Shown one piece after another: positions 2,719 to 64,000 of a stretch of DNA of 64,000 bases. Source of the DNA: Octopus vulgaris. Lineage: Eukaryota. The notes under the pieces are model-generated. The model saw nothing but the letters and a program-made list of their open reading frames with translations, searched no databases and was not told the origin of the DNA. The stretch's first letter is position 1; the number at the start of each line of letters is the position of its first letter. Both the position numbers and the translations under genes were made by a program. The stretch covers positions 65,348,001 through 65,412,000 of the forward strand of contig OX597817.1 in assembly GCA_951406725.2 (NCBI GenBank), given 5' to 3'.

Positions 2719-2900
2719 TAGATGGATAGACAGAGAGAAAAATGGAGATAGAAGTAGATAAAAAAAGAGAGATAGAGAGAGAGGTAGATAAAAAGAGTGT
2801 GAGAGAGATAAAGAGAGAATGAAAGAAAGAAATGGAGAGGGGAGAGAAAGGGTGAAGGAGAGAGAAAAAGGGAAATAGAGAAAAAGAGGGAGAAAGGAAG
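2602..2900. repeat. (AG)n / purine-rich microsatellite tract
   Basis: Perfect (GA)n at ~2626-2700 inside a degenerate polypurine run. Confidence 0.95.
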
Positions 2901-3051
2901 AGCGACTGCGTGTGCCTACATGTTACTTGTATTCAATAGTACACATATTCATACATGTTTATAGAAGTTTAACATGGTGTCTGTTTCAACTGGTGTGTGT
3001 ATAAGTGAATACACGTACATATGTATGTAAGTATGTATGTTTGTATGTATG

Positions 3052-6487: not shown

Positions 6488-7286
6488 AGAGCTCCTGGAG
6501 AACCCCTTATATTAAAAGACGGTAGGCTCTTTGTTTGAGGGAAGATTAGGGGCTAATCAAATGACATTGTTGACTGGAACTCATGAACAAACCACACAAA
6601 GATTCAAACAGTTTATTCAATAGTCATATGTCGAATGCATCTTATTTACATATATTATGTATATTAGGTGCATTTATTAAATATCGTATCTATATATTAC
6701 ATATACATTTTTATATTAGATACATTTATCAAAATGTATTATCGGTATATTATGTATATTTTGTACATATACCAATTTATCGAAAATATTAATAGATTAG
6801 AAAGACATTTAAATTATGGAAACATTTTTTAAACTTAAAAATCAAATAAAATATAAAACACAATGAAACTGCATTTTTAGGATTCTTAAAAAAAAATTAG
6901 AAAGTCTAATATATAATTATAATCTTCTTTTAAATTTCCAACTTGTTTTAAAATTAAAACTTTCTATGCACAATTATCAAAATTATAAAATTCTAGATGC
7001 TCAGCCCCACCCTATACATACATACATACATACATACATACATACATACATACATACATACATACATACATACATACATACATGCACACACATATTCGAA
7101 ACTACATACACACAAAGATACATGTACATATATATGTATATATATATATATATATATTTACATATATATATATGTACATATATATATATATTTACATATA
7201 TATATACATGTATGTGCGTGTATATAAACACATAAAAAATATGAATATACATATGTGAGTGTGTATGCGTATGTATGAAATAGATT

Positions 7287-40927: not shown

Positions 40928-42201
40928 CAGGGGTTGGACAAAATAATGGAAACACCTTAAAATTTCAAACAAATTTATTTTAATATGGGGTAGGACCACC
41001 TTTGGTAGTAATTACAGCTTGAATTCTATGAGGTATGGATTCGAACAAAGTTTAAATTGTTTCCAAAGGAATTTTTGTCCATTCTTCAGCTAAAACAGTT
41101 TCCAGTTCTTGTAGTGGTGATGGTGAAGGATATTGACTCCTTACTTGTTTTTCTACAATGCACCACAAATGTTCAATAATATTGAGGTCTGGGAACTGTG
41201 GTGGTCAGATAAGATGTTCAACTTCACTAGAATGTTTCTCGTGCTATTCAGTAACAACCTTAGCTGTGTGAATTGGTGCATTATCATCCTGAAAGATTGG
41301 GTTTCTCTCCGGAAACAGTTCCGCAAACATACGATGAATTTGATCAGATAAAATTCTTAAATAGTCTTGACTATTAATTCTGCCATGAAGGGAATCCACT
41401 GGGCCAGCGGATTTCCAAGATATTACCCCGCCAGATCATCACAGACCCTCCTCCATGTTTAACAGCTGGAAGAATGCAGTCTGGGTCAACTGCTTCTTTT
41501 GGCTGTATCCACACGTATACTCGGCCGGTAGTCGGAAATAAGGTAAAGGATAACTCGTCTGAGAGAATAACATTCTTCCACTGCACCAAGGACCAATTCT
41601 GTAGGTTTTTACTCCACTCTAAACGCTTTGCAATGTTCGTTTTTGAAAGTAGTGGTTTTCTGATTACAGCCCTCCCGTGAAATCCAGCTATGTGCAGCTC
41701 CCGACGAAGAGTTTTTGTGGAAACTGGGTTCTCGAGGTAGTCATTAAGCTCTGCAGTAGTTTTGGGAGCTGTACTTTTGTGATGCTTCCTAACAATTCGT
41801 GTAAGAGTCCGACGGTCCTTATCTGAAAGTTTTGGTTTTCTTCCGGAGTTTTGTTTCAACGAGGAGGTTTTTCCCTCTTTTTGAAAGGCTGTCATTACTT
41901 TCGAGAGAGTATTTCTTGATACACCAAACATTTCGGCTGTTTTCGTTACACTAGCGCCTGACATACGAGCACCAACAATTTGACCTCCTTGAAAGTCCGA
42001 TAGATCTGTCATTTTAATGAATTTTAATTACCTTTTTCTGATGATATCTGAAAAGAAGCAGCAATTTTAGCAAAACATATTAAGCAACACTAATGATAAA
42101 TAAAAAAACACAAAAATAAAAAAGCTTTTGAGGATTTTATAGATATTTGAAAGTTATGATGCTATGATACTCGGTGTTTCCATTATTTTGTCCAACCCCT
42201 G
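40928..42201 (-). mobile_element. Tc1/mariner DNA transposon, DD36E (Incomer-like), 1274 bp
   Basis: Perfect 29-bp TIRs caggggttggacaaaataatggaaacacc (40928-40956 and 42173-42201) enclosing a transposase. Confidence 0.95.
40980..42012 (-). pseudogene. Tc1-family transposase pseudogene
   Basis: 212-aa ORF (HTH, GRKPKL, ILSDE, KHGGGSVMIW), then a +1 frameshift near 41430 continuing ...FQDDNAPIH...*PPQFPDLNIIEHLW...KGGPTPY*, with three in-frame stops. Confidence 0.93.
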
Positions 42202-60942: not shown

Positions 60943-61250
60943 TAAAATTTCATATTGGTGGCACAACATCAAAGCCTGCTTACCAAAAACTACCAGGCTA
61001 ACGTTCTTCAAAACGGTTCTGACCCTAAATGCAGATTCTGTGACACATTTGACGAAACAATAGCCCATCTCGTCTCGGGATATCCTGTGCTGACACCAAA
61101 CAAATACAAACATCGCCACTTTAGGACAGGACAGTATTTACATTGGAAAATATATATACACTACAAAATCAGCACTCCTGCTTACAGATATAAACACTAT
61201 TTTTACCTGTCGTTGAAAGTAAAAAATGTCACTACGCTCTGGATCTTCCA
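60943..61250 (+). pseudogene. R4/Dong-type LINE fragment (CCHC finger / RHD region) following (AAT)n
   Basis: AQHQSLLTKNYQANVLQNGSDPKCRFCDTFDETIAHLVSGYPVLTPNKYKHRH..TGQYLHWKI from the ORF at 60955. Confidence 0.88.
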
Positions 61251-61697
61251 GTCAGCGCCGTTTCTTTGTTGTTTTGAAATTCTCTGTGATAGATCGTTCT
61301 CCCTATCACTTTTGTCATCCTCGCTCTTTCTCTCCACTCACCTGTTACTATTTCTTTAACTTCACTCGAACAAGGCATCACAGCAACACCGCTTCCCACT
61401 TCCTGGTTCTTCTCTAACAAATGCTTTCTCAAACTGATCGATAAACTGGACAGTCGTCCTTTTTTTTTGTTCTCCCTCTTCACCCTCTTCTTTTTATATG
61501 CAGTTGGTTTCTCCACCAAGTTGTACACACACCTTAACAGTTTGACAAAACCAAATTGAAAACTATTGTCAGAAAGGGGTCGAGATACTGATGATATTTG
61601 ATTGACAACTAACGTCAGATGAACTCGTCGGTCGTCCATTTTCTTTTTAGTTCTCGATTTGTTTGATAATTTGTCCCTTAATACCGAAACATATCTT

Positions 61698-62845: not shown

Positions 62846-62909
<64 letters not shown>

Positions 62910-63227
62910 GATTAACTGTTGAACTGGACGGACGTCTATTTGTTTCTCTCCCGAGTCAGTAGCAAGCTACACAGCTTCAAAACTAACTGACCTTAAATAT
63001 ATATATATTTGTAACCACGTGTTTGCCTACAAACCCGTAAGTACGTTTTCATTTAACTACAAATTGTTATATACACCTGTTTTTCTTTTAATATCCTCAA
63101 ACAACCAAATAATCAAAAACTCACACCCTTAAGAGAGAACATTTATATATATATACACTTTAACTCCCAAGAAAGAATATATATATTTTCAAAAATCAAA
63201 AGGAAAACAAACAAAAGAAAAACAAAC

Positions 63228-64000
63228 ATGACTAACTTGCAGGCCTGCAACAGACGAAATTGGTCTGATAACGAAATTGATGTTTTAATAAACACATGGC
63301 TCTCTCTTTCCCAAACAGAAAATCTAAATGTCTTGTGTTTGAATGAGATTGCCGAAAAAACATCACAAGTGGTCAACACACGATCCGTCAAACAGATTCG
63401 TAGCAAGTTGAAACATATCGAAGTATCTTTCAAACTGATAAGAGGCCATTATGAAAAGCTTCTACATATTTTCACAGTTCAAGAACAACAACAGCTAGAA
63501 AATCAGCAGCCACAACAACAACAACAGAATGAGCCACTCCTGGTTCCCAACACAATGGCTGACCCTGACATCGGTCAGGCACAACAACAACAACAACAGC
63601 CACAGCAACAAGAACAACAACAGCCACTCCTCAACTCTAGCTTACTAGACGATTCACTAAATGCCAGTATCTTTTCACCGCTCTCACAGCAACCACCACA
63701 ATTATCATCATCATCATCACCACCGCTGCCACCATCGTCTTCTATCACCAAAAATACCAACAGAAAACCAAATAAGAAACCACTGCCCTCTTCCCCCACA
63801 TCACCACCTCAATACTACTGCAGTAACAAAAACTTAAAGAAACATAGGAAGCAGAATGCGCCCCCCACGGCACAAACAAGAAATCCCCAAATATGCCGCT
63901 ATTCACTGCGCCAGAGACTCTGCACAAATAGTGACTGCATCTTCACGCATCTACCTGGCACTAGACGCACTACTGGCCAAGGCCAAAGCACGCATCCCAC
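63228..64000 (+). CDS. Partial ORF (at least 257 aa, runs off window): Myb/SANT-like domain + Q/S/P-rich linker + CCCH zinc finger; probable LINE (CR1/L2-group) ORF1
   Basis: Manual translation from ATG 63228 has no stop: MTNLQACNRRNWSDNEIDVLINTW...EIAEK...RSVKQIRSKLKHI...QQQ...ICRYSLRQRLCTNSDCIFTHLPGT; absent from the ORF track because it lacks a stop codon in the window. Confidence 0.8.
   Translation, partial: MTNLQACNRRNWSDNEIDVLINTWLSLSQTENLNVLCLNEIAEKTSQVVNTRSVKQIRSKLKHIEVSFKLIRGHYEKLLHIFTVQEQQQLENQQPQQQQQNEPLLVPNTMADPDIGQAQQQQQQPQQQEQQQPLLNSSLLDDSLNASIFSPLSQQPPQLSSSSSPPLPPSSSITKNTNRKPNKKPLPSSPTSPPQYYCSNKNLKKHRKQNAPPTAQTRNPQICRYSLRQRLCTNSDCIFTHLPGTRRTTGQGQSTHP

Follow-up and report, generated by a model that had tools for sequence, protein, structure and literature searches.

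A deeply conserved HIV-type slippery junction between the two ORFs of a young octopus LINE, with frameshifting inferred from sequence

The open reading frame (ORF) at the end of a 64,000-nucleotide stretch of Octopus vulgaris DNA (contig OX597817.1; the whole stretch is called the window below) is the front of a young, autonomous-type LINE with two ORFs, the second encoding an APE endonuclease and an RT, and is not a host gene. The ORF1/ORF2 junction of this element, 340 bases beyond the window end, is a deeply conserved HIV-type slippery site, U_UUU_UUA. Judging from the sequence, ORF2 is probably made by -1 ribosomal frameshifting on this heptamer, giving an ORF1-ORF2 fusion, a reading to which we assign a probability of about 0.7. 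Because ORF2 lies in the -1 frame behind the conserved heptamer, the enzyme is likely to be produced by ribosomes that slip back one base.

The element, its copies and their flanks

A sequence-only reading of the window had reported 257 stop-free codons with a Myb/SANT-like N-terminus, a CCCH finger and a leader that starts right after a (TA)n. As shown in Table 1, an ATG opens this frame, which stays open to the window end; PF13837 matches aa 9-73 (E 1.5e-5; 25.7 bits, curated cut-off 27), the C-x8-C-x4-C-x3-H pattern with LPGT is present, and the 5' end common to the copies of the family begins at about 62907-62909, directly behind the (TA)27 array. The finger is not single, as a second one follows just past the window end. 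The ORF had also been called the only undisrupted complex one in the window, which is incorrect, since a stop-free ORF of 217 codons lies at 41377-42027 on the minus strand; we take it to resemble the N-terminal part of a Tc1/mariner transposase. A decayed fragment at 60946-61359 on the plus strand, beside an (AAT)n-like run, presumably resembles the C-terminal zinc-finger region of an RTE-type LINE.

Table 1. Features of the window copy. Positions are those of the window or, with the prefix L011, of the extended locus (L011 position = window position - 62000).
Feature	Position	Strand	Remark
(TA)27 array	62852..62905		5' junction of the LINE, likely insertion site
5' UTR of the LINE (family A)	62907..63227	+	Same start common to copies
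ORF1, codons 1-257 of 409	63228..64000	+	Element continues beyond the window end
Myb/SANT-like three-helix domain, aa 9-73	63252..63446	+	PF13837 match and predicted model
Low-complexity linker, Q-rich then S/P-rich, variable length	63480..63812	+	
First CCCH finger, C-x8-C-x4-C-x3-H-LPGT (C223, C232, C237, H241)	63894..63962	+	
Second CCCH-HLPGT finger	~L011:2068-2136	+	Just past the window end
ORF1/ORF2 junction	L011:2340-2361	+	T4A in the window copy; U_UUU_UUA in most copies; 7-bp hairpin directly after
APE and RT	~L011:2514-5275	+	Stops ~60 codons early
(TATCAAAG)n tail and (TA)34	~L011:5341-5431	+	

A genome search with the flagged stretch gave 488 candidates; 40 were scored, and each of them matched it along its full length at 99-100% identity. 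Counted by their junction pattern, at least 352 dispersed copies at ~99% identity make up this family, named A. Its element, defined from 20 copies, is 4.62 kb long, with one common 5' start and a (TATCAAAG)2-3 tail. The 8 kb that follow the ORF hold the second CCCH finger, the APE endonuclease and the RT. Family A ORF2 matches PF03372, PF14529 and PF00078 above cut-off, with APE preceding RT and the motifs LTETHL, GDFNLP, SDH and FADD; a Pfam scan of the element gave no match to a protease or an integrase. 5'-truncated copies occur in this family and in three further ones of the same genome (B, C and D). The window copy had been thought possibly full-length; its 5' end is intact and its tail retained, but the terminal ~60 codons and the 3' UTR are missing. 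Both of its junctions lie inside (TA)n, so any target-site duplication is unreadable there. One family A copy (L027) has predicted exons near its 3' flank, presumably of an ankyrin-repeat gene, and an exon at ~2730-3050 (oriented strand) of locus L052 looks to us like that of a fucosyltransferase.

The high copy number, the downstream APE-RT and the tandem tail thus identify a young LINE of autonomous type, as the sequence-only reading had proposed. Myb/SANT-like domains also occur in MSANTD/MADF proteins and in Harbinger ORF1, and a domesticated Myb/SANT-CCCH host factor of cephalopods, or the ORF1 of a Harbinger-type DNA transposon, would fit the head; this explanation retains practically no probability in view of the dispersed copies, numbering 352 or more and 99% identical, the adjoining APE-RT, the tandem tail and the 5'-truncated copies. 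An R2/Dong-type element is rejected by the location of APE before RT. CR1 elements end in a short tandem 3' tail, and the element likely belongs to the CR1 group, a label that we base on motifs and tail type.

The suggested association with (TA)n is borne out as a correlation. Of 19 full-length family A copies, 17 have an array of (TA)5 or longer no more than 40 nt from the 5' end (5.1% of window positions do); at the 3' end, 18 of 18 have one no more than 65 nt away (7.2% of window positions). Such arrays also adjoin the 3' ends in families B (16/20), C (15/18) and D (14/18), as well as 5'-truncated ends (9/14, 12/13 and 8/16, respectively); full-length 5' ends of families C and D were not counted, their reference sequences beginning inside the element. 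The two metagenome contigs of related elements that include a 3' end have no TA array there. Going by these flanks, family A likely targets (TA)n; that the Myb head steers the insertion is conjecture. At the 5' junctions of L013, L014, L018, L019, L029 and L030, short, repeated pieces of the first 5-25 bases of the element alternate with TA runs, as though second-strand priming had restarted several times. Copies of families A, B and C adjoin in the same TA arrays at L013, L028, L035, L037 and L054, often head to tail.

ORF1 and its relatives

With six T at the junction, ORF1 encodes 409 aa with two CCCH fingers, and is predicted to consist of a Myb/SANT-like head, these fingers and a C-terminal helix. 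PF13837 scores are below the curated cut-off also in families B (23.9 bits) and C (17.3 bits); a homologue (P0004) clears it with 31.7 bits. The predicted structure of the head has three helices (mean pLDDT 81.7). A Foldseek search with this model gave no match at E<=0.001; its best rows included many homeodomain, SANT, Myb and GT-1 entries, all with E>=1.3. In a second fold search the SANT domain of DNAJC2 (Z 4.9, rmsd 4.1, 69 residues aligned) was tied with unrelated rows and nothing was significant. Profile and model together give the Myb assignment moderate strength, and the head may bind DNA. Pfam CCCH families matched the fingers under their cut-offs (E 0.005-0.09), the match of the first finger to zf-CCCH_2 being weak (E 0.051). 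The CCCH ligand residues are kept across relatives; family B retains the first finger, and the metagenome relatives have it in the form H-L-K-G-T. None of the catalogued CR1 ORF1 types gave a Pfam match in the ORF1 of family A or B or in the first 100 aa of that of family C. The Myb/SANT-like plus CCCH architecture, as predicted here, does not appear in the CR1 ORF1 catalogue of Metcalfe and Casane 2014.

In ORF2, families A and B are 78% and families C and D 70% identical, with 36-41% between the groups; over these and two metagenome families the range is 36-78%. Family B has the same ORF1 plan as A, and its blastn likeness to A starts at the heptamer. Families C and D are 37% identical to A and share a Myb/SANT-like start (with profile support for C), one CCCH finger and S-F-L at the heptamer. 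The four family C copies that include the start of ORF1 (L055, L058, L065 and L066) all lose the frame between Myb head and finger around an A run, three copies being shifted by one offset and one by the other; either a homopolymer assembly error or a second recoding site would account for it. At their 3' end, families C and D (L061 ~6500-6540; L069) resemble by eye the 3' end of a short repeat common in the genome (L011:6918-6975), which suggests a SINE-LINE pair with a common tail.

A word-based protein search with the 409-aa ORF1 found nothing at E<=0.001 among 2162 candidates. A full HMMER scan with aa 1-329 gave 11 matches, including two unrelated multi-CCCH proteins (P0001 and P0008), which are 716-786 aa long, carry numerous CCCH fingers in tandem ahead of an unnamed domain at the C-terminus, and do not resemble a LINE ORF1. 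The ORF1 relatives found by HMMER have a Cys-rich head, the same finger and the same helix containing a Phe-Leu (F-L) pair; we read the head as PHD-like, and Pfam gave no PHD match in it. In a length-limited search, a profile of these relatives retrieved 120 separate proteins of at most 753 aa, three of them named Mnemiopsis leidyi. The distant relatives with the heptamer likely come from comb jellies. A weak search for longer, fused relatives found none among 5962 candidates. Among viral contigs, 0 of 189 pattern matches were confirmed. One 30-letter match was traced to a decayed copy without ORF1 (L052).

The ORF1/ORF2 junction and the translation of ORF2

In family A the T run at ORF1 codons 372-374 has six T in 207 of the 352 junction matches and four T in 18, and in all 145 matches depart from exactly six. 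With six T the codons are TCT TTT TTA, so that the ORF1 frame reads U_UUU_UUA and ORF2 is in -1. Six T were also present in contigs of 7/7 public runs from 7 studies; such contigs leave out variants of low frequency, and the assembly itself may stem from one of these runs. The -1 frame opens 4 codons upstream of the heptamer and runs for 1039 codons, with no Met ahead of the first APE strand. The window copy reads as one fused ORF only because two T are missing at its junction, and this deletion is either real or an assembly error. Copy L024 is likewise an in-frame ORF1-ORF2 fusion, complete, with 1410 aa.

The heptamer is kept as U_UUU_UUR at the same place in families B, C and D and in two metagenome families. 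Family B has 141 matches, and 94 of the first 100 in the list show U_UUU_UUA. The heptamer is U_UUU_UUG in 12 of 14 family C copies and U_UUU_UUA in two of five older family D copies, the remaining three having five T or a substitution (in L080 within the T run; L080 and L083 were scored by reading the sequence directly). Three of three metagenome contigs (L088, L090 and L089) have U_UUU_UUA at F-L. In L088 and L090, ORF2 is in the -1 frame and lacks a Met upstream of APE. L089 forms a single ORF, fused by a short downstream insertion, and a protein of the same family (P0135) ends ORF1 normally. In family A and its relatives this X_XXY_YYZ heptamer stands in the ORF1 frame, inside the -1 overlap. 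The -1 frame opens 1-8 codons before it in all six families and stays open for 50-66 codons from heptamer to APE in families A-D and L088/L090; upstream, 7-17 of 150 codons in that frame are stops. Given the peptide and the codon usage of the elements, the chance of the three heptamer codons is ~0.02 in families A-D and 0.07-0.09 in the metagenome families; A/B, C/D and the metagenome pair represent no more than three independent lineages.

No other pair in the helix is as conserved as F-L, which is present in 92 of 98 aligned ORF1 relatives (23 of 121 proteins were left out of this alignment for having no finger pattern; three of these still have H/D-F-L-E-L and one is non-homologous). Since F-L lies inside a conserved helix, selection on the protein explains part of the conservation. 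The residue before F-L is one of ten that can end in U, and never K, E, Q, M or W, which cannot (0/92). At positions -2 to -6 among 78 distinct contexts these five residues make up 79/390 (Fisher p 2e-7, a value that overstates the difference because the sequences are related). In the overlap of families A and B, 13 of 22 mismatches fall at third positions of the ORF1 frame, and 20 of 30 residues are alike in frame 0 versus 15 of 30 in the -1 frame. As the mismatches are mostly at ORF1-frame third positions, selection acts on the ORF1 tail as protein, and the arrangement in two frames is the native one.

Under the frameshift reading, most ribosomes would read 37 codons past the heptamer to the ORF1 stop and make the 409-aa protein, with a putative role in RNA packaging. 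A few would slip by -1 and make a minor ORF1-APE-RT fusion of roughly 1410 aa, which would nick the target and copy the RNA; in the window copy, the deletion of two T would hard-wire this fusion. At the usual spacing of 5-9 nt, no stable stem-loop was found as a conserved downstream stimulator in the six families (folding z -2.6 to +0.7). A perfect 7-bp hairpin that pairs with the U run abuts the T run in family A (z -5.4). Such pairing was rejected as a conserved feature, being seen only in families A and C; the hairpin is weak or missing in families B and D and in those of the metagenome. The family C heptamer ends in G, and a G-ending heptamer is a poorer slippery site.

The main rival is termination at the end of ORF1 followed by re-initiation at an AUG or near-cognate codon just before the stop, as in SART1 and L1, with U_UUU_UUR kept as coding for the start of the conserved ORF1 helix. 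It owes this place to an AUG in the ORF2 frame that precedes the ORF1 stop by 7 nt in family B and by 10 nt in family C, with CUG at the position of the family B codon in A. For SART1 and L1, the available parts of PMC3894237 and PMC2881922 name stop-start coupling as the mechanism, and the lack of a conserved stimulator for frameshifting also speaks for it. In-frame AUGs before APE exist in families B, C and D, with none in A and L088/L090. However, at the position in question family D has AUA and L088/L090 have only AUC/GUG, and the L088/L090 codon comes too late to keep the first APE strand. Re-initiation also leaves unexplained the opening of the -1 frame directly ahead of the heptamer, the 30-60 codons over which it stays open upstream of any such start, and the fixed codon choice. 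We therefore consider it unlikely.

A weaker rival holds that the active masters are single-ORF copies with four or seven T, the U run being a site of RT or RNA-polymerase slippage and the six-T copies making ORF1 only. The two in-frame fusions noted above would be such copies, and the T run is an indel hotspot: it is shortened in 11 of 20 family A copies and otherwise altered in one, whereas 11 other runs at least six long together show 3 events. RT slippage at U6A was shown in vitro for HIV, and single-ORF CR1 subgroups exist, according to the text available of PMC5737442 and PMC4120745, respectively. But T length varies within groups of copies that share SNPs and is therefore not inherited; four T are as rare as stated above, and family B keeps six T almost throughout the matches scored. 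The 120 relatives from the length-limited search are separate proteins of at most 753 aa, and no fused form appeared among longer proteins in the weak search. Hairpin-linked sequencing error and per-copy slippage both fit the short T runs. In our view single-ORF masters are very improbable, and frameshifting on the heptamer remains the preferred reading.

Taken together, these features describe a retroviral slippery site held at one position across families that differ widely in ORF2, which offers a precise and cheap test of a second route to ORF2 in animals. Family A, with hundreds of copies at 99% identity, is young enough to assay. If the fusion is true, the ORF1 domains ride on the enzyme, and the known modular swapping of ORF1 heads would be linked to target choice. 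A repeat library derived from single copies, or from assemblies prone to error, can wrongly class families of this kind as single-ORF. As a broader and doubtful proposal, an old animal LINE lineage, from ctenophores to cephalopods, might make a retrovirus-like ORF1-Pol fusion by -1 frameshifting on U_UUU_UUA, its exchangeable head (Myb/SANT in octopus, a Cys-rich one that we read as PHD-like in ctenophore-type relatives) serving as the targeting domain of the fused enzyme and the Myb head guiding it into (TA)n.

Comparison with known systems

Frameshifting was suggested for overlapping LINE ORFs in older papers. Outside subscription journals, Repbase Reports and Dfam, our literature search turned up no account of a slippery junction between ORF1 and ORF2 in CR1-group LINEs of animals, nor one of a LINE ORF1 with Myb/SANT and CCCH. 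The word 'frameshift' does not occur in PMC3708506, and neither 'frameshift' nor 'Myb' occurs in PMC13343379, PMC9115989, PMC10294476 or PMC11203168. The available text of PMC13282606 counts 13 recently active CR1 families in Octopus vulgaris and does not describe their ORFs; its consensus library may hold family A.

Like CR1-group LINEs (Jockey superfamily), the octopus element has two ORFs, APE then RT in ORF2, a short tandem tail and 5'-truncated copies. It differs in its ORF1, whose Myb/SANT-like head and CCCH fingers are not a listed type: for types I-V, Table 1 of Metcalfe and Casane 2014 (PMC4120745, available in part) gives only PHD, RRM, CCHC, Tnp22, zf/lz and esterase, and Myb, SANT, CCCH and frameshift have 0 occurrences in that text.

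TRE5-A and TRE3-A of Dictyostelium are likewise APE-type non-LTR elements, for which a -1 frameshift is stated as needed for ORF2 in the accessible text of PMC5911963; this is not repeated in that of PMC5006619. TRE5-A ORF1 also takes part in target choice via TFIIIB (PMC5911963, same text). In contrast to the octopus families, these elements are amoebal, targeted to tRNA genes and provided with an oligo(A) tail, and that text names no slippery sequence.

Re-initiation is the route given for ORF2 of SART1 and L1 (PMC3894237, PMC2881922 and, again in part, PMC5009743), and ORF2 translation in LINEs is called an open question in the first of these. SART1 (UAAUG) and L1 share with the octopus element a bicistronic LINE RNA and a presumably low ORF2 output. 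What sets the octopus-type ORFs apart is an overlap of 100-200 nt in -1 and, in two lineages, the absence of any AUG upstream of APE.

R2/Dong-type elements have one ORF, whose product carries a Myb domain at its N-terminus and a restriction-like endonuclease at its C-terminus. The proposed octopus fusion would similarly place a Myb-like domain and zinc fingers before the RT, whereas its APE precedes the RT and its fingers are CCCH.

A parallel at the junction is HIV-1 gag-pol, whose -1 frameshift site is given as U_UUU_UUA in the text available of PMC3458567, PMC5737442 and PMC4373837. HIV has a stem-loop at a set spacing, of which none is conserved in the octopus LINE families, and the octopus element is a non-LTR one with neither a protease nor an integrase match. 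The two share an identical heptamer in the frame of the first ORF, an overlap in -1 and, if the fusion is made in octopus as we infer, a structural protein joined to the enzyme.
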